DNA from: Candidatus Saccharimonadota bacterium
Lineage (GTDB): Bacteria > Patescibacteriota > Saccharimonadia > Saccharimonadales > Saccharimonadaceae
Length of the DNA stretch: 32,000 nt
Direction: 5' to 3'
Assembly: GCA_016700015.1 (NCBI GenBank)
Contig: CP064995.1
Span: forward strand, 240,001 to 272,000
Positions 2,069 to 29,483 of this stretch are shown here, one piece after another (the stretch's first letter is position 1; each line of letters opens with the position of its first letter). The notes below the pieces were generated by a model. The model saw only the letters and a list, made by a program, of their open reading frames with translations, made no database searches and was not told the origin of the DNA. Made by a program: the position numbers and the translations under genes.

Positions 2069-2563
2069 ATGAAAAACAAAATTTTAATTGCCGCAATTGC
2101 CGTGGTTGTACTTGCGTCTGTAGCCTATGCTGCCTTTGCGCAGAATCTCCAGATTAATGGTACCGGTACGGCAACGGGTGACTGGAACGTGAAAATAACC
2201 GGCATTACTAGGACTTCAGGAACGGGTGTTACAGAAGCTTCAGGCCCATCATTCACAGATACATCAGCTACCTTTAGTACGAATCTGCAGTATCCTGGCG
2301 CGACGGCAACTTACTCTGTGGTAATTGAAAACCAAGGGAATATTGCTGCACAGTTGAGTACAATTACAAACCTTACTACAATCAATTCGGCAGCTCCTAC
2401 CTATATTACCTACGCCGTGAATGGTGTCACGCAGGGAAGTACACTTGCTGCAGGCGCTACCGCTACAGCTACTGTCACAGTGACGTGGGATGCGGCTGCA
2501 ACAGGTACAACCGGCGCAAATAAAACAGCACAAATCGACTTTAACTACATCCAGAGCACCTAG
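2069..2563 (+). CDS. Small secreted beta-rich protein, TasA/camelysin-like candidate fibre subunit
   Basis: N-terminal signal or anchor MKNKILIAAIAVVVLASVAYA|AFAQ. The mature part is rich in T/A/G/N. The strand LQYPGATATYSVVIENQGNIA and the C-terminal strand AQIDFNYIQ resemble TasA/Peptidase_M73 family patterns, from my memory of that family. The gene sits next to a SipW-type peptidase. Confidence 0.6.
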   Translation: MKNKILIAAIAVVVLASVAYAAFAQNLQINGTGTATGDWNVKITGITRTSGTGVTEASGPSFTDTSATFSTNLQYPGATATYSVVIENQGNIAAQLSTITNLTTINSAAPTYITYAVNGVTQGSTLAAGATATATVTVTWDAAATGTTGANKTAQIDFNYIQST

Positions 2564-2584: not shown

Positions 2585-3403
2585 GTGGCCACTATTCGCA
2601 CACTAGCAACATGGCGTGGTACACTATGGCGTGATATCGCGCTGATTGCTGTACTACCACTCCTATTTGTTAGCACGAGCTACGCACTATACACCCAAAA
2701 ACTCACCGTGAATGGGACGGGAAGTGGGGTGACGTACACCAGCTCGCAAGGACTATTTGTTAGCTATACAAAGACGGTTGTACAAGCAGGTGCAAACTGG
2801 AACTACTCCATCGCTTTTATTGTTAAAAATAATGGCACGAGCGCTATTGGGAGCTGGCAGGTTGGATTTACGATGCCGACAGGCAGCACGTCGCTGGTTT
2901 GTGCGAGTAGTGTCACTTGCTCGGCGGCTGGTATGGCAGTTACAGCTTATAGTACGGCGACAAACAAGACGATTAACGCTGGTGCGCAAAGGACATTTAC
3001 GGTTACGTTTACAGCTACGGTTGCAAATGCTGTCTTGCAGAATCTCTCGGTCGCCGGGTATTATGCCAATACGTACCAGACCATCCCTGGGCTTACGGTG
3101 TCGAATACTAGAGGTACACGCACGAAGTCGGGTCAGTGGTATTATTGGCCGTATAATTTTACTGTTACCAACAATTCAACTATTGCCATCAGTGCTTGGC
3201 GGATTACGGCGACATGGAGCAGCACGACCAATCGCGTACAATCCATGGCAACAACGGTAAACTACACGACAAGCGCAACTCAACTTACTATAACCAGTAA
3301 AACTGCAGTTGCCAAAAATAGCACGTTCAACTTTACGGGCTCGCTGGGCTCTACGAGCACCACATGGGTATTGAGCGGTATCGTGATACAGGGGATGCCG
3401 TAA
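2585..3403 (+). CDS. Secreted protein with two tandem CBM2-like beta-sandwich repeats; shares its N-terminal processing motif with the preceding gene
   Basis: GTG start preceded by aAGGGAcGGG. The N-terminus ...LLFVSTSYA|LYTQKLTVNGTGSG parallels the upstream protein's VAYA|AFAQNLQINGTGTA. There is an internal repeat: IVKNNGTSAIGSWQVGF... versus FTVTNNSTIAISAWRITA... Confidence 0.6.
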   Translation: MATIRTLATWRGTLWRDIALIAVLPLLFVSTSYALYTQKLTVNGTGSGVTYTSSQGLFVSYTKTVVQAGANWNYSIAFIVKNNGTSAIGSWQVGFTMPTGSTSLVCASSVTCSAAGMAVTAYSTATNKTINAGAQRTFTVTFTATVANAVLQNLSVAGYYANTYQTIPGLTVSNTRGTRTKSGQWYYWPYNFTVTNNSTIAISAWRITATWSSTTNRVQSMATTVNYTTSATQLTITSKTAVAKNSTFNFTGSLGSTSTTWVLSGIVIQGMP

Positions 3404-4572
3404 TGTGGTGGCGAACTCTGCGTGTTGTTCGTCCGACTGCGTGGATGATTCTCGTAGCTGTACTGACCGCAACGACACTCACGGTCTGGTTGCGAGTGGC
3501 TCAGATTGTGCCGATTGCATGGATCACCTATACTATCCAGCCTCTTCTGCTCGTCGTAATTGCTAGTTGGTCACTGCTTGCCACGCGTGGTCGTAGTAAC
3601 CGAGCGCGGCATCAATCAGACAAAGCAATAATTGTCGGTAGCGCTGTGGCCATGTGGTTTGTACTTCAATTTGTTAGCGGTATAGTTTTCACCTATACAA
3701 GGAATGCGCTGGCAGCAGATGGCAAGAGCATAGCGCTTAATATTTTGGCCTATAGCATTGTTGCAATTGCAATCGAAATAACTCGCTCGCGACTCATTAT
3801 GCTTGTCGGACGTCGGAATGCCGTGTGGTTTGGAATGATTGTGACAATAGTGCTTGCGCTTCCCTATATGAATTTAGGACAGGCGGTTGAATTGACGTCA
3901 GCGGAACGAGTGGTCAAGATGATATTTATCGACGTCGTACCTTCACTGATGATGAGTACCGTGTTAACATTTTTGGCAGTAGCTGCAGGGTTTGCTTCAC
4001 AACTTACCTTCAGGCTCGGCATTGTTGCTGCGACTATATTGCCACCGATCTTGCCAAAATATGACTGGTATTTGATCGCCATGTCGTCGATGCTTGTCTG
4101 TGTAGCAGTATATTTAGTAATAGATCGCAGCAGCCGCCCTCATGTTAATCACCGGGCACATCGCATCTCGCAGGTAAGGATTGCCTATGAGATTATGGCG
4201 TACAGTACAATTGTTGCACTAATATTATTTATGACAGGCATTTTTGCCTATCGACCGATGGCTATCGTCTCCAATAGTATGAAACCGGTCTTCAGTAGAG
4301 GTGCGATGATAGTTGTGCAGCAAGTGCCTGCTGTGGACATAAGCACAGGCGATATAGTACAATATCAGGGACCAGGAAGAATGGTGACGCACCGTGTTAT
4401 AGCGATAGACTATGATCCTTCGGGCACAGGTGAGCGAATATTTATCACCAAAGGTGATAATAGCCCGAGCCAAGACCCAGTTGTGCGTGCGGAGCAAATC
4501 ATCGGCGTTGTGAAGTTTAGTATTCCTTACATCGGATATCCAACAGTATGGTTAAGAGAATTTTCGGTTTAG
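3403..4572 (+). CDS. Fusion of a polytopic membrane domain (~8 TM, ~285 aa, unknown family) to an ER/archaeal-type signal peptidase I (S26B, SipW-like)
   Basis: The ATG at 3403 overlaps the upstream TAA (TAATG). The C-terminal ~105 aa carry the motifs SNSMKP (Ser codon 4276-4278), GDIVQY, MVTHRV (His codon 4390-4392) and TKGDNSPSQD, matching the SipW/Sec11 Ser-His type motifs SGSMEP / THR / TKGDNN. Confidence 0.75.
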   Translation: MWWRTLRVVRPTAWMILVAVLTATTLTVWLRVAQIVPIAWITYTIQPLLLVVIASWSLLATRGRSNRARHQSDKAIIVGSAVAMWFVLQFVSGIVFTYTRNALAADGKSIALNILAYSIVAIAIEITRSRLIMLVGRRNAVWFGMIVTIVLALPYMNLGQAVELTSAERVVKMIFIDVVPSLMMSTVLTFLAVAAGFASQLTFRLGIVAATILPPILPKYDWYLIAMSSMLVCVAVYLVIDRSSRPHVNHRAHRISQVRIAYEIMAYSTIVALILFMTGIFAYRPMAIVSNSMKPVFSRGAMIVVQQVPAVDISTGDIVQYQGPGRMVTHRVIAIDYDPSGTGERIFITKGDNSPSQDPVVRAEQIIGVVKFSIPYIGYPTVWLREFSV

Positions 4573-4580
4573 GTGGGTAA

Positions 4581-5741
4581 ATGAAAAACACATTTGAGCA
4601 ACAGCAATATAATCGTCGATTGCGTATCATGACCACAAGCGGGATTGTTTTGTTATGCTTTGCTTTGGGTGTTGCTGTCGGGCTTTGGTATCAAAAAAAT
4701 TCCGGAGCAACTGTAAGTGCGCCTTATCACTACTCGGTATCGCAATCTATCAGCAATGCGGTGTTGTACCATCAGAATAGCTTTTATGGAACAGACGACG
4801 TAATAGATAATACTGCCTTTGTAGCTCCACTTACCAATGAGATCCGCACACAATTTCATTATCAATATAGTGGCACAAAAAGTGCGGCGCTCGAGTATCG
4901 TTTTGGTGTTGCAGCGCTCATTCGGGGGACCTATGCGCTATCGGGGAAAGAAGAAGAGTCGGCAAATGTTTGGACGAAGCAGTATGAGCTCATAGCGCCT
5001 ATTACTAAGCAAATCAATGGCACAAATTTTGTGATTGATCAACCGATCACAATCCCCTATGAACAGTATCGTATATTGATCGATCAGTACCGCTCAGCGC
5101 TACAGGTACCAGTGGACGGTGAAGCAATCATTTCGATTGTCGTTAGCGTAAAAGGTGTGATTGACGGCACTCCGTTTGATGACACTAAGACGTCAACTAT
5201 CGCGCTACCTTTAACGAGGCAAATATACCAGCCGGCAACCAAATATGAAAAAAATAGTAGTAAAGATATTACGACAGCGTCGAGCCGAGCGACGCAGGCT
5301 GGTGTAAGCCAACTCCTACTAGTCACTTCAGTCGTGTTTACAGCGCTTGGGGTAGCTCTGATTGTCTTCGCAATGCGACGAAGGATTTTCCGCACGTCCT
5401 ACCAAAAAGAACTCGATAAAATTTATCGCTACCATGAAGGAATAATTGTACGCGCCCGCGAACACCCAGATTTGTCGGGTAAGCGAATTGTTGCGGTCAA
5501 GAGCTTTGATGATATTCTGAACCTCGAAGAAGAAGTAAAGGCGCCAATCGTCAGTAGTGAGGCTGGCGAGCATGCAACAAGGTTCATGATCATAAAGGAT
5601 GACGTGGTATATATGTACCTACTTGGTAGTTTATCAACGACGGATGACGAAGTGCTAAGGGAGATTCAAGATGCTTTCGACGAGAAGACAGAAGTAGCAA
5701 AAAAGCCATTAGCAAGGACTGTTCACCGCAAAGTACAGTAA
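4581..5741 (+). CDS. Bitopic membrane protein: TM, ~200-aa external domain, TM, ~120-aa cytoplasmic tail. Its architecture recalls the DUF5305 proteins found beside SipW-type peptidases.
   Basis: SD AGGTGGG before ATG 4581. Hydrophobic segments are GIVLLCFALGVAVGLWY and LLLVTSVVFTALGVALIVFAM. The family assignment rests on context and architecture only. Confidence 0.45.
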   Translation: MKNTFEQQQYNRRLRIMTTSGIVLLCFALGVAVGLWYQKNSGATVSAPYHYSVSQSISNAVLYHQNSFYGTDDVIDNTAFVAPLTNEIRTQFHYQYSGTKSAALEYRFGVAALIRGTYALSGKEEESANVWTKQYELIAPITKQINGTNFVIDQPITIPYEQYRILIDQYRSALQVPVDGEAIISIVVSVKGVIDGTPFDDTKTSTIALPLTRQIYQPATKYEKNSSKDITTASSRATQAGVSQLLLVTSVVFTALGVALIVFAMRRRIFRTSYQKELDKIYRYHEGIIVRAREHPDLSGKRIVAVKSFDDILNLEEEVKAPIVSSEAGEHATRFMIIKDDVVYMYLLGSLSTTDDEVLREIQDAFDEKTEVAKKPLARTVHRKVQ

Positions 5742-7797: not shown

Positions 7798-9578
7798 TGC
7801 GCCCACTGCGTACCATAATTAGTTATACTAGCCATTTGCGGGCGTATATGGTTGCTGTTGCGGTTCTGGCGGTATTTACGTCGCTTATGGCGTTTGTGCC
7901 ACCGTTTGTTATTAAGCTTGTGACCGACTGGGTAGTGCACATATCACAAGGAACCACGATGTTTAGCTGGCAACAATTAGGGGCATACGCGCTGGTGCTG
8001 ATTGGTGTTGCGGTGCTAAGCGCAGTGATCGCAGACATCAACGGCTATTTAGGAGATCAGTTATCAATCCGTGCTCGTCATCAATTGTCGACGGCCTACT
8101 ATGGACACTTACTAAAGTTGCCACAGCAGTATTATGACAATGAAATTAGCGGCAAGATTATAAATCGACTTAGTAGGGCGATAACTGACATTACCAACTT
8201 TTTGCAATTCTTCTCGAACAATCTTCTCCAGATGCTACTTACCACTATCCTGACACTATTTGTTTTATTGTGGTATAGCTGGGGGTTGGCATTGTTGTTT
8301 GCGGTGCTCATTCCGGCAAATTTGTATCTGACGGCAAAAACAAGTGGTAAATGGCAAGCACTTGAAAAACAAAAGAATCACCATTTCGATATTGCGAGCG
8401 GTCGATTTGCGGAGGTAATCGCACAAGTACGCTTAGTAAAAAGTTTTGTTACTGAAAAACGGGAGTTCCGCTTTTTTGACAATGAAGTAAAACAAATGAT
8501 TGGTCTCACCGCAGACCAGTCGCGGCACTGGCACATGATGAATTTCCTGCGCGGTCTGGTATTTGGTATCATTCGCGCTCTCAGCCTTATTCTCATATTC
8601 TATCTTGCTGCTAATAAGCAATTAACAATCGGTGATATTGCAATGCTCGTGGTTCTTATTCAGCAGGCGAGCATGCCGCTCAATGGTCTTAGTTTCTTTG
8701 TCGATAGTTATCAGCGAGCAGTTGCAAATAGCAAGGACTATATTGACGCCATGAATGAGCCAATCGAGCCTGACGATAGTGCGCGGAAGAAATTGGCTAT
8801 AACAACAGCCCGCGTCGATTTTCGTGATGTTAGTTTTGGGTATAATACGCAACACCATGTTCTTGATGGGGTGAGTTTTTCAATCCTGCCGGGTCAAAAG
8901 TTGGCATTAGTTGGTGAATCGGGTGGCGGCAAAACGACGATTTCAAATCTACTCATGGGACTTTATGTGCCACAACAGGGAGCGATTCTTATTGATGGAC
9001 AAGCAACTGACACTATTCGACGGCGCGACCTGCGGCAATCGATAGCCACTGTATTTCAAGACGCCTCGCTTTTTAGCGGAACGATACGAGAAAACATTGC
9101 CTATGCGAAACCGGGTGCAAGTGATAAAGAAATATTTGCTGCCGCCAAAGTAGCTAACGCGCTAGGATTCATCAACAAACTCGACAAAGGACTTAACACC
9201 GAGATTGGCGAGCGTGGCATAAAGTTGAGTGGTGGCCAAAAACAGCGACTTGCTATCGCCCGCGCCGTGTTGAAAGATGCACCAATCTTAATTCTCGATG
9301 AGGCAACCAGTAGTCTGGATAGTCGGGCTGAACACGAAGTGCAAGAGGCACTTAATCGACTCATGCAGGGGCGAACAGTGCTTATTATTGCTCATCGACT
9401 TAGCACAATTGCTGGCGTTGATGTAATAGTGACACTAAAAGACGGTCGTGTCGACGAAGTCGGTACGCCCGCAAGGCTTGCTATGACAAATGGTATCTAC
9501 GGTCAGCTTTTGGCGCTTCAGATGGGCACTACTGAAGCCGCAAAGAAGAAATTAGCCGAGTACGAAATCACCAGTTAG
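7785..9578 (+). CDS. ABC exporter, fused permease/ATPase half-transporter (MsbA/CydDC-like architecture)
   Basis: Six N-terminal TM helices, Walker A GESGGGKTT, signature LSGGQKQRLAIARA and Walker B ILILDEATS. The start is moved to MRKIVRPL... because the upstream 33 codons (rich in C/H/Y) look non-coding. Confidence 0.9.
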   Translation: MRKIVRPLRTIISYTSHLRAYMVAVAVLAVFTSLMAFVPPFVIKLVTDWVVHISQGTTMFSWQQLGAYALVLIGVAVLSAVIADINGYLGDQLSIRARHQLSTAYYGHLLKLPQQYYDNEISGKIINRLSRAITDITNFLQFFSNNLLQMLLTTILTLFVLLWYSWGLALLFAVLIPANLYLTAKTSGKWQALEKQKNHHFDIASGRFAEVIAQVRLVKSFVTEKREFRFFDNEVKQMIGLTADQSRHWHMMNFLRGLVFGIIRALSLILIFYLAANKQLTIGDIAMLVVLIQQASMPLNGLSFFVDSYQRAVANSKDYIDAMNEPIEPDDSARKKLAITTARVDFRDVSFGYNTQHHVLDGVSFSILPGQKLALVGESGGGKTTISNLLMGLYVPQQGAILIDGQATDTIRRRDLRQSIATVFQDASLFSGTIRENIAYAKPGASDKEIFAAAKVANALGFINKLDKGLNTEIGERGIKLSGGQKQRLAIARAVLKDAPILILDEATSSLDSRAEHEVQEALNRLMQGRTVLIIAHRLSTIAGVDVIVTLKDGRVDEVGTPARLAMTNGIYGQLLALQMGTTEAAKKKLAEYEITS

Positions 9579-10108
9579 GGATGACGGTTAATCTGTTTTA
9601 GCGCGAAACGGTAAACGGCAACAATCGGTATGAGCGATATAGCAAGGATTGGCATGCCAAGCCATAGTACCAGCTCCATATTAGCTGTATCGGGCACGAA
9701 CTGTCTCTCGATAATTGCCGGAACAATAATAGCCAGCGCCCAGAGCAGTGAGATCACGCCCAGAAGATAGGTGGTAAGTAATAATCCATAAAGGACTCGC
9801 AACTTGCGGGATGTATAGAAAATGACCAAATACAGTGAGCCGCGGAGCAAGATCGAAACAGTGAGCAGGGCAATTGGCCACCACAGCGCGCCGCCAATAT
9901 GAACCAGCAGACCACTAAATGTGATCATGAACTGTGCATATGCAAAAACGAGAAGGGTATGTGTGACCTCAGTCGATGCTTGGACAAATATAAGATTACG
10001 CCCAGCTGGTTTCTGTGTAATGCGCAGTGTTAGCCATATTTCAAGCACACTAAAGAAGAGATAAATAATAACCGGCACGAGAATAAGGCAATAAAGCACG
10101 GCTACCAC
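9575..10108 (-). CDS. 177-aa polytopic membrane protein occupying the CydB position; non-canonical partner of CydA
   Basis: About 5-6 hydrophobic helices. Its start overlaps the cydA stop by 7 nt. It is about half the length of a typical CydB and lacks the usual N-terminal DGFD-like pattern. Confidence 0.5.
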   Translation of the reverse strand: MVAVLYCLILVPVIIYLFFSVLEIWLTLRITQKPAGRNLIFVQASTEVTHTLLVFAYAQFMITFSGLLVHIGGALWWPIALLTVSILLRGSLYLVIFYTSRKLRVLYGLLLTTYLLGVISLLWALAIIVPAIIERQFVPDTANMELVLWLGMPILAISLIPIVAVYRFALKQINRHP

Positions 10109-11364
10109 GACTGTTTCTCCTCGCTACGCCAGCGCCGTGTCGTATAGACCAGAGCATACGTAGTTGTGAGCCCGAGGAGTACAAACAGTACTATAAATAG
10201 GTACTGAGTGCGATGAATATTGGCGCCTAGCGTATACGCAGACTCTGTGCTGAGTTTGCCGACGACTGTCCAGGTTTGACGACCGAATTCTGTGATAAGC
10301 CAACCGAGTTCAAGCATGACGAATCCGATACTACTGAAAGGGACTAGTACAATGCGTAGCCATCGCGGCTGTTTGTGAATTCGCCATCCATACCATACGA
10401 CGAGCAATATAATAGCGCATGAGAGCCCGACAAGGATCATTTTGATGTCGAACATCGTATGCACAACTAAGAAAGGCCATTGGTCACGAGGAATTTCATT
10501 AAGACCTTGCACTTTTGTATCAGTGGACCATCCTACCAGCCAACTAAGGACACCTGGCAATACAATACCACCCGTTGCTTTGCCACTATCATCAATCATG
10601 CCGCCAATTCGCAGAGGAGCATTTGTCTGAGTGTTGTCTAGAATTTCAATTGCAGCTAATTTGTGCGGCTGAGTCGATGCGAGTAATACCGCGGATTGAT
10701 GTCCCAGCACGGCGAGCGCGATAAGTAGTAGCCCGGCAATAACACCAAGCTGCAGCATAACAGACTGCAAGAATTTTTGCGCTACTAGCGTTTGTTTTTT
10801 TAGACTCCGCCACGCGATATAGCCAAGCACCAAAACAGTCGTGGAGAATAGGTAGCTGGCAACAGAGTGCATTACTTCATTGGCGGTTGTAGCGGTAAAT
10901 ATCGCTTCGGGGTTATTCATGTAGGCGTTCACCGACGTAATAAAGAATGCGGAACCAATCGTGCCGATGCTAATTGGTAGTCCGATCCAAAAATGCTTTA
11001 TGCTGCCGATTGTATTTAACGTGCCTAAGTACCAGCTTAGGAACACCGCTTCAATGAGGAACATATAGCCCTCAAGCTGAAAAAGAACACCCACGCTAGG
11101 GCGCACGTGATCAAGAAAAGGTGCCCACAGTGTCGACAACTGAAGCGCAACTGCAGTTCCGGTGAAAACGCCGGCAACTACAAATACGGCAGCCCAAAGC
11201 GCCAGTAGGCGTGTTAGCCGTCGGTACTCATGGCTTTTGTGTCTCCAAGCCTGCCATTCAAAATAGCTCATTAGTACCGGCAAGCCGATAGAAATGGTGA
11301 CAATAATGATATGTACAGCAAGAGTATGTCCGATGAGCTCGCGTCCAGCTGAGAGGGCATCCAT
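10102..11364 (-). CDS. cydA: Cytochrome bd-type quinol oxidase subunit I (short Q-loop)
   Basis: N-terminal His-containing helix (GHTLAVHIII), LEGYMFLIEAVFL, the Q-loop motif QPHKLAAIE, and GWLITEFGRQTWTV. Confidence 0.85.
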   Translation of the reverse strand: MDALSAGRELIGHTLAVHIIIVTISIGLPVLMSYFEWQAWRHKSHEYRRLTRLLALWAAVFVVAGVFTGTAVALQLSTLWAPFLDHVRPSVGVLFQLEGYMFLIEAVFLSWYLGTLNTIGSIKHFWIGLPISIGTIGSAFFITSVNAYMNNPEAIFTATTANEVMHSVASYLFSTTVLVLGYIAWRSLKKQTLVAQKFLQSVMLQLGVIAGLLLIALAVLGHQSAVLLASTQPHKLAAIEILDNTQTNAPLRIGGMIDDSGKATGGIVLPGVLSWLVGWSTDTKVQGLNEIPRDQWPFLVVHTMFDIKMILVGLSCAIILLVVWYGWRIHKQPRWLRIVLVPFSSIGFVMLELGWLITEFGRQTWTVVGKLSTESAYTLGANIHRTQYLFIVLFVLLGLTTTYALVYTTRRWRSEEKQSW

Positions 11365-26091: not shown

Positions 26092-27003
26092 ATGGGGCTA
26101 ACTATTACTGAGATTCGTGACCGTACACTTCGTGCCAGGCATTTGATGCAGCGGAGTCGGCAGCAGGGCTTTGCGGTGGGTGCATTTAACATCGACAACC
26201 AAGAAACGCTGATTGCCGTCTGTCGAGCAGCGCAAAAGCTTAATGCACCAGTGATGGTCGAAGTGAGCGATGGCGAAGTAAAAGCACTTGGTCTCGAAAA
26301 CATTCGCGATATGGTCGACAATTACCGTGACGAATACGGGGTGGAGATATATATTAACCTTGACCATAGCCCAACGGTTGAGGCGTGCAAGCAAGCGATC
26401 GATGTTGGGTTTGAATTTATTCATATTGACATCAGCCAGGCAAATCACGATGCTACTGAAGAAGAAATAATCGCTAAAACCAAAGAGGTGGTGGAGTACG
26501 CCCGTTTTACAGGTGCGCTCGTTGAGAGTGAGCCACACTATTTTGGCGGCAGTAGCAACGTACATCACGAAGACATCAACTACGATGAGATTAAAAAAAC
26601 GTTTAGTACACCTGAAAGTGCCAAAGCATTTTGCGACGCGACGGGTGTCGATACGTTTGCCGCAGCGATCGGCAACTTGCACGGTAAGTATGACGTACCG
26701 AAAGAACTTGATATTGAGCTACTGCAGCGTATCCGCGAAAGCATCGGTTGCCAGATTAGCCTGCACGGTGGCAGCGGCACGCCACTCCACTACTTCGAGG
26801 AAGCGGCTAAAGTGGGCGTGAGTAAAATCAACATCAATAGCGATATGCGCTATGCATTCCGTACGGTGCTCGAGCAGTCGCTTCAGCAGCACCCCGATGA
26901 ATTTGCAGTGGTGAAACTAATGGACGACGTAAAAGACGCTGTGCAAGCGGTGGTCGAAGAAAAGATCACAGCATTTGGCAGTGCCGGCAAGGCAGTTCGC
27001 TAG
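26092..27003 (+). CDS. fba: Class II fructose-bisphosphate aldolase family protein
   Basis: GAFNIDNQETLIAVCRAAQKLNAPVMVEVS, LDHS, HIDIS, LHGGSGTP. Confidence 0.9.
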   Translation: MGLTITEIRDRTLRARHLMQRSRQQGFAVGAFNIDNQETLIAVCRAAQKLNAPVMVEVSDGEVKALGLENIRDMVDNYRDEYGVEIYINLDHSPTVEACKQAIDVGFEFIHIDISQANHDATEEEIIAKTKEVVEYARFTGALVESEPHYFGGSSNVHHEDINYDEIKKTFSTPESAKAFCDATGVDTFAAAIGNLHGKYDVPKELDIELLQRIRESIGCQISLHGGSGTPLHYFEEAAKVGVSKININSDMRYAFRTVLEQSLQQHPDEFAVVKLMDDVKDAVQAVVEEKITAFGSAGKAVR

Positions 27004-27004
27004 C

Positions 27005-27994
27005 ATGGTGAAGATTTTGAGTATTGGCAAGGGCACGCAAGACGTGTTCCTCAAAAGTGACGAATTTGACCCGCACAAAGAAGGCAGGCATATGTATACT
27101 CACTTGCCACTCGGTCTTAAAATGGAGGTCGAAGACGTGCATTTTTGTACAGGTGGCAATGCGACCAATGTTGCAGTGACTTTTGCGCGGCAGGGGCTGG
27201 AGAGTGGGTACCTGTGGGGGCTGGGTGACGACCCGGCGAGCGCGTCGATACTACGCGAGCTGGACGAAGAGGGAGTCAATACCTCGCATGTGGTACAAAA
27301 GCCTGAATATCAGTCGGGCTATTCGGTGATTATGATTGCGACAAATGGCGAACGAACTATACTCAACCATCGTGGCAAAGCATTCGGTCGCACCGGACGA
27401 CACAACTTTGACCTAGCTGTAATCGGCTCGTATGACTGGATATATCCAACAAGTCTTGGTGACGGTGGTTTGCCACTGCTTCACGAAATTGTCTCGACAG
27501 CCGCTCGGCACAAGGTAAAGGTGATGCTCAACCCAGCTGGGCCGGAATTGGCTGATCCTGCAAGATTAAAAACAATCCTTGAAGATGTCGAGGTACTTTG
27601 CTGCAACAAAGAAGAAATGAGTTTGCTCGTTGCAGGCGCTACTTGTGAAGAACTGGCACTTCACGCGTTAAGCTACGTGCCAGTAGCCATCGTGAGTGAT
27701 GGCCCTAATGGCGTGGTTGCGACCGATGGCAAAACCATCGTACGTGCTGGTATGTATGAAGACGTGCCGGTAGTGGATCGCACCGGTGCGGGTGACGCGT
27801 TTGCCAGTGGATTTTTGAGTCAGTGGAGCCAAGGTAAAAGTCTCAAGCAGTCGATTATATTTGCCAGCGCCAATAGCACGAGTGTTGTCACAAAGATTGG
27901 CGCGAAGGCTGGTATACTACCCAAAAGTGTACGGCTACATGAGATGCCAATTCATGAACGTCCCGTTAATTTACGCGAGGCGCCCCATGTCTAA
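27005..27994 (+). CDS. PfkB-family carbohydrate/nucleoside kinase
   Basis: The ATG lies 1 nt after the fba TAG. Motifs present are TGGNATNVAVTFARQG (di-Gly motif) and DRTGAGDAFASGFL (anion hole and catalytic Asp). Confidence 0.85.
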   Translation: MVKILSIGKGTQDVFLKSDEFDPHKEGRHMYTHLPLGLKMEVEDVHFCTGGNATNVAVTFARQGLESGYLWGLGDDPASASILRELDEEGVNTSHVVQKPEYQSGYSVIMIATNGERTILNHRGKAFGRTGRHNFDLAVIGSYDWIYPTSLGDGGLPLLHEIVSTAARHKVKVMLNPAGPELADPARLKTILEDVEVLCCNKEEMSLLVAGATCEELALHALSYVPVAIVSDGPNGVVATDGKTIVRAGMYEDVPVVDRTGAGDAFASGFLSQWSQGKSLKQSIIFASANSTSVVTKIGAKAGILPKSVRLHEMPIHERPVNLREAPHV

Positions 27995-29483
27995 ATATCT
28001 CCAACAGCTACTTGGTGCCGATGAGCCGATGTTCAGTACGACGCTCAGGCAGCTAGAAAAAATGACTGGGCATAAGGCGACAGACGTGGCTTATATCGCT
28101 GATATGACAGCACGAGCCCACCAGGTGATGCGCCGTATGGGACTCGATGTTGCCGACACCACCGAACACGAACTCTACCGTGCGCTCGCTGCCCATGCCC
28201 ATAACCAGACCCTGTTCATAGCAACCGATGACGTGGGGATCATCATCCACGGTCAGGCTGTATCGTTTAATTACGAAGACGTGCAGGAAAACATTCATCG
28301 CCCATTTGCTGAACGCATGACTGAGCACATGAAGTGCCAAATCAAATACGGCCTGACTTCGCGCTATGTGGCCGCCGATGGTGATGATGAAGTAGCAATT
28401 GAAGAACTTATTGCTCAAGCAGGGCTTAGTGTGTGTGACATGAGCGACTATCACGAACATAAGCAGACAAATGTAAAGCAAAAGACTCGGCCGCCGCGGC
28501 TGCTATTTATTGGTGACATTTTTACCGACGCGTTTATCAAACTCAGCCCGAAAGTCGCTCGCGTCGATAAAGACGACCAGGGTCGATCATGGATTAGTAT
28601 TCCATTCGGTGGCCGTCCGCCCTATGAGGAAGTGGAGATCGTCCAATCGGTTGGCCCAGCTCCCAATGCAGCCGTTTCTTGTGCGCGACTTGGACTTGAT
28701 GTGAGTTTGATGAGTTGGCTTGGTGACGACAAGCCTGGCGGTGATTCGCTCGCATACCTTTCCAAACAACAGGTTAACACGCAGCTCGTATCACAGAAAA
28801 AGCAGGCAAAATCAAACTACTACTATGTACTGCGGCTTGGCGCAGAGCGTACGATTTTGACGAAAGATGAAGACTATAGCTATGTATGGCAAGAGCCGCA
28901 TATGGTGCCAGATTGGATCTACCTGGCCAGTATTAGTGGTGAATCGTGGGGGTTGCATGAAGCCCTCGACAACTACCTAGGGCAGCACCCAGACATAAAA
29001 TTTGTCATTCAGCCGGGTACGTTTCATTTTGAATGGGGCGTCAAGAAGATGGCGCAGCTTTACCGACATGCCTATATGGTGATCCTTAACCGCGAGGAGG
29101 CCGTTATGCTCACAGGCAAAAGTCATGAGTCGATACCAGAACTAGCAGCTGCGTTGCATGAACTTGGTCCGCTCTATGTGGTGATTACTGATGGCCCTTC
29201 TGGTTCGTACGCGTCTTTTGATGGAAAGCTCCTAAAAATGCCTAACTATCCAGACCCGGCGCCGCCGTATGATCGCACTGGTGCTGGCGATGCTTTTGCG
29301 AGTACGGTGGTCGCAGCGATGGCACTAGGAGAAGGTTTTGAAACGGCCCTTACGTGGGCGCCTATCAACAGTATGAGTGTTGTCCAAAAACTCGGGGCTC
29401 AAGCGGGATTACTTTCCAAAGCGACAATCGAGGAGTATATCAAAAAAGCACCGAAATGGTATAAGTTAGAGGAGATTAAATAA
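27987..29483 (+). CDS. PfkB-family kinase with a ~170-aa N-terminal domain of unknown function
   Basis: The start ATGTCTAA overlaps the upstream stop by 8 nt. The C-terminal ~320 aa carry DRTGAGDAFASTVV, but the di-Gly motif is replaced by VGPAPNAAVSCARLG. I do not recognise the N-terminal MSKYLQQLLG...AQAGLSV region. Confidence 0.75.
   Translation: MSKYLQQLLGADEPMFSTTLRQLEKMTGHKATDVAYIADMTARAHQVMRRMGLDVADTTEHELYRALAAHAHNQTLFIATDDVGIIIHGQAVSFNYEDVQENIHRPFAERMTEHMKCQIKYGLTSRYVAADGDDEVAIEELIAQAGLSVCDMSDYHEHKQTNVKQKTRPPRLLFIGDIFTDAFIKLSPKVARVDKDDQGRSWISIPFGGRPPYEEVEIVQSVGPAPNAAVSCARLGLDVSLMSWLGDDKPGGDSLAYLSKQQVNTQLVSQKKQAKSNYYYVLRLGAERTILTKDEDYSYVWQEPHMVPDWIYLASISGESWGLHEALDNYLGQHPDIKFVIQPGTFHFEWGVKKMAQLYRHAYMVILNREEAVMLTGKSHESIPELAAALHELGPLYVVITDGPSGSYASFDGKLLKMPNYPDPAPPYDRTGAGDAFASTVVAAMALGEGFETALTWAPINSMSVVQKLGAQAGLLSKATIEEYIKKAPKWYKLEEIK

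Follow-up and report, generated by a model that had tools for sequence, protein, structure and literature searches.

Several donor-strand fibres are served by an S26B signal peptidase encoded beside their subunits, as exemplified by SipW and TasA from Bacillus, and by TafD, TafG, and TafA–E of the haloarchaeal Taf fimbriae. In the latter system, the dedicated peptidase TafD processes TafA, and its deletion blocks subunit processing, while TafG, a DUF5305 protein, has been proposed to work with TafD (PMC11821415, PMC12337348). TasA, the substrate of SipW, holds an aromatic residue at P2' (PMC10269814). Here, a locus of this kind is described from Candidatus Saccharimonadota bacterium (GenBank assembly GCA_016700015.1). 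It lies in a window of 32,000 nucleotides (contig CP064995.1, positions 240,001 to 272,000 of the forward strand), whose own coordinates are used throughout. Its peptidase, encoded on the forward strand at 3403..4572, is a 389-residue protein in which the catalytic module is preceded by a domain of eight predicted transmembrane (TM) helices (hereafter, the N-domain).

Signal peptidases with many helices have already been reported from AbpX loci. AbpX forms a donor-strand fibre of the TasA superfamily, and a DUF5305 protein is listed as a signal-peptidase accessory protein for this system (bioRxiv 10.64898/2026.01.04.697558, January 2026). According to the same preprint, the type I signal peptidases of bacterial and archaeal AbpX loci have ten TM helices; the one sentence devoted to this feature neither identifies the extra helices nor mentions CAAX or CPBP proteins (bioRxiv 10.64898/2026.01.04.697558). 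The multi-TM architecture is already noticed there, but not analysed. Like the window protein, those peptidases are dedicated enzymes of the TIGR02228 type, adjoin AbpX-like subunits and a DUF5305 gene, and far exceed the one or two TM helices that are usual. However, the bacterial members mentioned in the preprint belong to Bacillota and Chloroflexota, and Saccharibacteria, to which the host of the window belongs, are not listed among them. The window protein has nine predicted TM helices and no C-terminal one, as opposed to ten, homology between the membrane domains being assumed in this comparison. In addition, the acidic residue at position 4 of the donor strand, which the preprint connects with Ca-dependent assembly, is missing in the window.

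Precedents for the membrane domain come from the CPBP, or type II CAAX protease, family. SpbR from Staphylococcus aureus is CAAX-like but degenerate; it binds the signal peptidase SpsB at its TM helix and at the extracellular loop/domain, and controls both the activity of SpsB and which substrates are cleaved (PMC12260438). SpdC, also non-catalytic, is a scaffold for the single-pass extracellular hydrolase SagB, whose TM helix it holds (6u0o; PMC12260438). As proposed for the window protein, SpbR–SpsB places a polytopic, degenerate CAAX/CPBP-like protein without His motifs beside a type I signal peptidase. However, SpbR and SpsB are separate proteins and not a fusion, SpsB is a bacterial housekeeping enzyme of the Ser/Lys type (S26A) whereas the window peptidase is of the S26B type, SpbR is recognised as CAAX-like by hidden Markov models (HMMs) whereas the N-domain is not, and SpbR acts as an inhibitor. 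SpdC (LyrA) in its complex with SagB (6u0o) and Rce1 (4cad), both members of the CPBP family, share eight TM helices with the N-domain, at template modelling scores (TM-scores) of 0.44–0.48. Rce1, however, has all three catalytic motifs, and the partner of SpdC is a glucosaminidase, not a peptidase.

Compared with the fibre systems, the window resembles Taf in its DUF5305 gene (TafG) and TasA in the aromatic P2' of its putative substrates. However, the N-terminal eight-helix domain is absent from both SipW, whose NCBIfam model is 189 positions long against the 389 residues of the window protein, and TafD, which combines four TM helices with an additional extracellular domain at its C-terminus; moreover, the Taf subunits follow the Tat pathway. 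We propose, with a probability of about one in two, that the N-domain serves its own peptidase as a CPBP-like scaffold or gate without catalytic activity, and that the protein as a whole is the dedicated signal peptidase of a surface-fibre cassette of four genes.

A signal peptidase fused to an eight-helix membrane domain

The C-terminal domain (4252..4572, forward strand) is a predicted extracytoplasmic catalytic domain of the archaeal/endoplasmic reticulum type. It matches TIGR02228 (sigpep_I_arch) over residues 270–383 (81.5 bits against a cut-off of 51.85, E 5.9e-23), and the best PDB match of the full-length AlphaFold2 model in Foldseek is human SEC11A (7p2p_A). The motifs SNSM, THRV, and GDN...D, already read as a catalytic module from the bare sequence, carry Ser292 (4276–4278), His330 (4390–4392), Asp352 (4456–4458), and Asp358 (4474–4476), and these four residues are conserved in 116–117 of 117 diverse members of the family. 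The catalytic type is Ser/His, not Ser/Lys, with additional conserved Asp residues, and the domain is classified by its sequence as an S26B peptidase with an intact Ser/His/Asp catalytic set. It lacks a C-terminal TM helix. The previous label of a SipW-type peptidase holds for the class, but not for orthology: the SipW equivalog model (NCBIfam NF046067) gives 53 bits against a cut-off of 190, which by this measure makes the protein a member of the SipW class and not a SipW orthologue.

The AlphaFold2 models have a predicted local distance difference test (pLDDT) value of 82 and a predicted TM-score (pTM) of 0.74 for the full-length protein, and of 88.6 and 0.86, respectively, for the N-domain alone. 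Eight long helices are placed within residues 11–244, followed by a ninth helix at 252–277 and by the beta-rich catalytic domain. In these models, the ninth helix would be the membrane anchor of the peptidase itself, so the extra domain comprises approximately 245 residues. The eight helices expected by the sequence-only reading are thus recovered, whereas its estimate of about 285 residues is too large. The N-domain (residues 1–245; 3403..4137, forward strand), with both termini predicted to be cytoplasmic, was characterised by AlphaFold2, Foldseek, hhalign, conservation, and charge counts. It is followed on the same strand by a segment (4138..4251) consisting of an Arg/His-rich cytoplasmic linker (residues 246–257) and the anchor helix TM9 (approximately 258–283).

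Across the 117 sequences, the predicted cytoplasmic loops hold on average 11.6 Lys and Arg residues, compared to 1.7 in the outer loops, and the loop before TM9 holds 5.3. The catalytic domain is placed outside because these positive-inside counts put the loop before TM9 in the cytoplasm. The predicted layout is therefore a cytoplasmic N-terminus, an eight-helix domain that also ends in the cytoplasm, a strongly basic linker, TM9, and a catalytic domain outside.

Six residues of the N-domain are near-invariant, namely Gly93, Asn113, Glu125, Arg128, Pro215, and Pro218. Glu125 (3775–3777) and Arg128 (3784–3786) are each present in 114 of the 117 members, and Asn113 (3739–3741) in 115; all three lie in TM4 (helix 107–135), with Glu125 located some 10–12 residues from its cytoplasmic end. 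Pro215 and Pro218 belong to the outer loop PIxPxxxW, and a further outer loop, G(Y/F)xxNPY, is conserved as well. These two loops (residues 213–221, 4039–4065, and residues 98–106, 3694–3720, respectively) are the most conserved outer loops of the N-domain, and both AlphaFold models are least confident there (pLDDT below 50–70); they may be ordered only with a bound partner. The sole Cys of the N-domain, C233, is not conserved, its His residues (70, 247, 250, and 253) all lie in loops, which agrees with the single Cys and the lack of intramembrane His noted from the sequence, and neither a His nor a Cys of the N-domain is conserved across the 117 sequences.

The exosortase/archaeosortase (EpsH) assignment was rejected on these catalytic residues, as C233 is not conserved and a conserved His is missing, in agreement with the earlier view that the pattern does not fit. 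No exosortase structure appeared among the Foldseek PDB matches; the two proteins encoded upstream show no C-terminal TM helix or sorting tag.

The open reading frame (ORF) of the peptidase runs uninterrupted from the ATG at 3403 to the stop codon at 4570–4572. The TAA stop of the preceding gene (3401–3403) shares one base with this ATG; the overlap is real, but it shows possible translational coupling only, and not the stoichiometric co-expression once read into it. An alternative in-frame ATG at 3364, 39 bases upstream, would yield a protein of 402 residues, and this start was chosen for P0001, the 402-residue database entry of the window protein. Start sites of the homologues correspond to 3403, with a one-base overlap or a one-base gap in two other loci, and the extension (3364–3402) probably reflects the 3' end of the upstream gene, which is conserved as such and here translated in a different frame. 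A similar N-terminal extension of 13 residues (MGADRRADSGGAM...) is present in the homologue P0014.

When the whole protein was used as a query, the database yielded more than 140 clusters of 342–402 residues, nearly all of about 390 and most with a query coverage of 88–100%, from sources named Candidatus Saccharimonas, Saccharimonadales, or Patescibacteria and labelled "signal peptidase I". With a profile of the N-domain (258 N-terminal residues), run against 1.84 billion representatives, 927 clusters at 50% identity were found at E<=0.001; the best 150 of them are mostly proteins of 380–400 residues with the domain at the N-terminus. The Pfam family Peptidase_S26 is present in all of the 117 full-length representatives scanned. 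The shorter, apparently "stand-alone" matches that were checked (233–294 residues) come from contigs of about 1 kb, that is, they are fragments, and two of them belong to clusters containing full-length members. Wherever it can be checked, the N-domain is fused to an S26B peptidase.

Fusions of this type may also arise artificially, by a frameshift, an assembly join, or a gene-calling merger of two genes. One such case is in the database: the protein P0235 (655 residues; L015:705-2672, metagenome contig SRR29758288_884770) joins a CBM2-like gene to the peptidase gene. This apparent CBM2-like, N-domain, and peptidase fusion contains an in-frame TGA read as Trp, and translation table 11 splits it into the usual two genes (one ending in ...AFVR, the other starting with MKKTFLK...). 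The use of the upstream ATG at 3364 in P0001 can be counted on the same side. However, the window ORF has no interruption, the more than 140 independent homologues are of similar length and align end to end, both parts occur in all of the 117 diverse representatives, the linker and TM9 are conserved as well, and the short matches checked are truncated contigs. An artefactual fusion is barely conceivable in the face of this conservation and was rejected. The possibility raised in the sequence-only reading, that a frameshift or an assembly error had joined two genes, thus found no support, and the fused architecture is genuine and conserved. With at least 927 clusters at 50% identity, from Saccharibacteria/Patescibacteria and uncultured Bacilli, the family is large, and its annotation as just "signal peptidase I" hides two thirds of the protein.

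Probable relation of the N-domain to the CPBP family

At the sequence level, the N-domain could not be assigned to any family, as had been anticipated. No match to the N-domain emerged when the window protein and ten distant members were scanned against Pfam and NCBIfam, when all 117 members were run against Pfam at E<=10, or when the PDB was searched with a profile at E<=10. PF02517, which is carried by relatives of the CPBP proteins used for comparison below, was not matched by the window protein in the Pfam scan or by any of the 117 members. A lone weak match to DUF7546 (E 0.083, in P0235) is not among the families matched by several members.

Structural comparison points to the CPBP family. 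For the full-length model, the second-best PDB match in Foldseek is 6u0o_A (SagB-SpdC; E 0.0095, probability 1.0, TMt 0.48, 258 columns). For the model of the N-domain alone, Rce1 (4cad_C/F) aligns with TM-scores of 0.44–0.46 over 259–266 alignment columns, while other natural membrane bundles reach 0.25 or less. In the two independent Foldseek runs, against approximately 350,000 PDB chains, no natural protein other than Rce1 and SpdC exceeds a TM-score of 0.4; their sequence identity to the N-domain is about 10%. The eight helices and the in/in topology also agree with Rce1. The search with the N-domain alone, which the earlier reading had asked for, gave a lead to the same fold, but all its E-values are above 0.1, and for this reason the fold call rests on the TM-scores.

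Profile–profile comparison was carried out against eight annotated CPBP genes from plasmids, in which the motifs EE..RG, F...H, and H...N, including both His residues, are invariant. A wider database search with these eight seeds gave only close orthologues of the B. cereus seed (65–97% identical), which were not used, and no CPBP gene that could serve as a comparison was found elsewhere in the window. With the 117-sequence alignment, hhalign gave P values of 0.007–0.02 and probabilities of 2–5%. In one co-linear register, Glu125 falls on the first Glu of EExxxR and Phe151 on the Phe of FxxxH; in an extended co-linear alignment, the His of motif 3 falls near Tyr203/Arg204. The score of 22.3 compares with 13.9 and 14.7 when a single alignment is reversed, and with at most 17.6 for seven unrelated ORF products of the window, mostly membrane proteins. 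It also exceeds all of 150 column-permuted controls and 149 of 150 block-shuffled ones. Reversal of both alignments gave 20.7, which is the mirrored form of the same comparison and not an independent control.

Regarding the motifs themselves, the region of motif 1 reads (A/I)E(Y/I)xR in the family and lies in TM4, the spacing between Glu and Arg differing from that of EExxxR by one to two residues. The His of motif 2 (FxxxH) is not kept: the position is variable, with Tyr in the window protein and Gln or Pro in many of the Saccharibacteria homologues. The His of motif 3 (HxxxN/D) is absent from the aligned position near Tyr203/Arg204. The N-domain is probably a very divergent CPBP-fold module that has kept the Glu and Arg of motif 1 and has lost both His motifs, a loss that resembles the non-catalytic CPBP proteins SpdC, LnsB, and SpbR. 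As defined by motifs and HMM, however, it is outside the CPBP protease family. The earlier decision to set CPBP aside was right about the missing catalytic His motifs, but probably went too far, given that CPBP/Rce1 is the best structural match and that Glu and Arg align with motif 1.

Several results weigh against a CPBP-like module. The Foldseek E-values are weak (0.0095 for SpdC and 0.76 for Rce1) and the TM-scores stay below 0.5; the hhalign probability is just 2–5%; and PF02517 is missing from all of the 117 members even at E<=10. Furthermore, the alignment restricted to Saccharibacteria (A2) gives no signal against CPBP in hhalign, its score of 15.3 being equal to that of the reversed control, and the motif-1 alignment appears only with the diverse 117-sequence alignment.

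These twilight-zone scores, structural and profile–profile alike, and the absence of any sequence-profile link to Pfam or PDB families leave room for an alternative, in which the CPBP likeness is a coincidence among eight-helix bundles and the N-domain is a new membrane fold with another job. It could be a platform or anchor that nucleates the fibre, a receptor, linked to lipid or cell wall, for the base of the fibre, or a conduit through which Sec passes subunits to the peptidase. The NPY and PIxPxxxW loops, with their low pLDDT, face the outside, where a fibre would grow, and the minimal AbpX locus of P. abyssi contains no cellular anchor (bioRxiv 10.64898/2026.01.04.697558). However, both natural proteins above a TM-score of 0.4 among approximately 350,000 PDB chains are from the CPBP family, hhalign independently selects a register on the same family, and the number of helices and the in/in topology are those of Rce1. 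Moreover, nothing in the sequence hints at a channel. A new fold is, on balance, rather unlikely.

Possible roles of the N-domain

A non-catalytic role in cis is favoured for the N-domain because SpdC and SpbR, two degenerate CPBP proteins that have been studied experimentally, work in this way. By analogy with them, the N-domain would pack on the anchor helix TM9 of the peptidase and touch the catalytic domain with its two conserved outer loops, G(Y/F)xxNPY and PIxPxxxW. The fusion protein would then be a covalent version of the SpbR–SpsB pair from S. aureus, in which an S26B peptidase replaces SpsB. The N-domain might fix how the active site lies with respect to the membrane, or control entry to it, so that the enzyme would cut only its cognate pre-subunits after ...YA. 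Such a cut would free the N-terminal strand (AFxQxLxVNG...) for donor-strand polymerisation, and the DUF5305 protein could be the third module of a small signal-peptidase complex. Scaffolding or gating of the peptidase would have, by these analogies, a better precedent than the coupling to export, anchoring, or polymerisation that the sequence-only reading had suggested. That reading would have been undermined by a match to a known family with an unrelated role. The probable likeness to CPBP proteins is no such match, as their role is not unrelated: a degenerate CPBP-like protein, SpbR, binds and regulates a type I signal peptidase in S. aureus (PMC12260438).

Two considerations speak against a scaffold or gate. 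Near-invariant Glu125, Arg128, and Asn113 inside the membrane are unexpected in a pure scaffold and could form an active or ligand-binding site. In addition, SpbR is an inhibitor, and it is hard to see why a dedicated peptidase should carry an inhibitor fused to it for good, unless this inhibitor acts as a selective gate.

The first of these considerations leads to a different proposal, in which the N-domain is an active intramembrane glutamic protease and the protein a fusion of two proteases. After the S26B cut at ...YA, the membrane domain would clear the signal peptide, in the manner of signal-peptide peptidases, or make a second cut in the pre-subunit. The conservation of Glu125 and Arg128 (114 of 117) and Asn113 (115 of 117) within TM4 fits this proposal, as does the hhalign register, which sets Glu125 on the catalytic Glu of CPBP motif 1. 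So does the position of Glu125, 10–12 residues from the cytoplasmic end of TM4, which we take to be similar to the depth of the catalytic Glu in Rce1. The cleaved signal peptide, moreover, remains in the membrane beside the N-domain. However, both His motifs, which are characteristic of active CAAX proteases (PMC12260438), are absent, and the N-domain has no conserved His at all. Degenerate CPBP proteins that keep Glu and Arg, such as SpbR with HELYMR, show no proteolytic role (PMC12260438), and the spacing in the family is ExxR instead of EExxxR. An active protease is thus unlikely. Still less probable is its specific form, a His-independent intramembrane glutamic protease derived from the CPBP fold, with Glu125, Arg128, and Asn113 as its site and sequential processing by the two fused proteases. 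If true, this would be the first case in nature of a signal peptidase joined to an activity like that of signal-peptide peptidases, and would give the CPBP superfamily a new catalytic variant.

If the N-domain is a CPBP-like module, the fusion lends support to the idea that CPBP-like pseudo-proteases and type I signal peptidases are functionally linked, by the usual reasoning that a fusion in one lineage points to an interaction between the separate proteins elsewhere. To date, this link has been shown only for SpbR–SpsB in S. aureus. Together with the DUF5305 protein, the fusion suggests that prokaryotes process fibre subunits with signal-peptidase complexes of several modules, which bear a loose resemblance to the signal peptidase complex of eukaryotes.

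The four-gene cassette and the rest of the window

The peptidase gene is the third of four co-directional, closely spaced genes on the forward strand. The first (2069..2563) encodes a small secreted subunit of 164 residues, identified through AbpX-like profile matches and through a homologue at the same position in two other Saccharibacteria loci (L001 and L003). The second (2585..3403) starts with GTG and encodes a larger secreted protein of 272 residues with CBM2-like beta-sandwich domains (Pfam CBM_2, E 4.1e-7). The third (3403..4572), with its TIGR02228 module and its eight-helix N-domain, is followed by a gene (4581..5741) for a DUF5305 protein of 386 residues (Pfam PF17231, E 2.2e-21, 76.7 bits against a cut-off of 29), which had been overlooked when the first three were described. 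The DUF5305 protein holds two hydrophobic TM-like segments, near residues 17–37 and 243–265, and is homologous to TafG and to the accessory subunit proposed for the signal peptidases of Taf and AbpX loci. A promoter and terminator scan of the cassette gave counts at shuffle level.

Both upstream proteins are plausible cognate substrates of the peptidase, as first suggested, since they share a cleavage and N-terminal motif, YA↓(A/L)(F/Y)xQxLx(V/I)NG, with an aromatic residue at P2' as in TasA. In the small subunit, the signal peptide ends in ...VAYA↓AFAQNLQINGTG, with the aromatic residue at P2', and the same motif is found in the larger protein at SYA↓LYTQKLTVNGTG. The aromatic P2' is kept in six of six homologues of the small subunit. 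The profile of the small subunit has its best PDB matches in AbpX (9sj2_C, E 0.011, and 9rhp_A, E 0.056), weak matches over about 75 residues that include the region PG(A/D)...N.G. The small subunit is thus, as judged from these matches, probably a fibre protein of the AbpX/TasA superfamily, and the larger CBM2-like protein is possibly a minor or tip subunit. The form YA↓(A/L)(F/Y)(A/S/T)Q.L.(V/I)NG follows the signal peptide in all putative substrates, from Saccharibacteria to a Bacilli metagenome-assembled genome (MAG; window 2069–2140 and 2585–2700; L013 2640–5812). The cassette predicts donor-strand fibres of the TasA/AbpX type in Saccharibacteria, and a literature search found no paper tying TasA or SipW to this group.

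The same four genes, with unrelated flanks, are present in two other Saccharibacteria contigs (L001 and L003). The CBM2-like gene lies directly upstream of the peptidase gene in L001, L003, and L015, and a gene in the DUF5305 position directly downstream of it in the five loci examined (L001, L003, L004, L013, and L015). In an uncultured Bacilli MAG (L013), three paralogues of the small protein replace the first two genes and are followed by the fusion peptidase and the gene in the DUF5305 position; a transposase-like ORF (3809–4414) lies between the first two of these tandem paralogues. Another contig of low guanine plus cytosine (GC) content (L015) contains at least the last three genes of the cassette. 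For the low-GC branch, a scan with a single protein yielded two loci only, so its taxonomic spread is thinly sampled. In L001 (8350–11955), the cassette is followed by a gene resembling a LexA DNA-binding domain, a reverse transcriptase (RVT_1), and a large serine recombinase, which suggests that a mobile element has been inserted beside it.

Outside the cassette, the window encodes housekeeping metabolism. Directly upstream lies an ORF of 294 residues (1033–1917) that has no significant Pfam or NCBIfam match (PRAI, weak, E 0.05). On the reverse strand, the segment 9575–11364 contains the gene for subunit I of cytochrome bd oxidase (10102–11364, E 6e-74) and, beside it, an ORF of 177 residues (9575–10108), short for subunit II. 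Further downstream (26975–29483), two adjacent PfkB-family kinase ORFs (26975–27994 and 27861–29483) overlap by approximately 130 bases; the match in the second one spans only residues 265–516 of 540, its N-terminal half being unassigned or its start miscalled.

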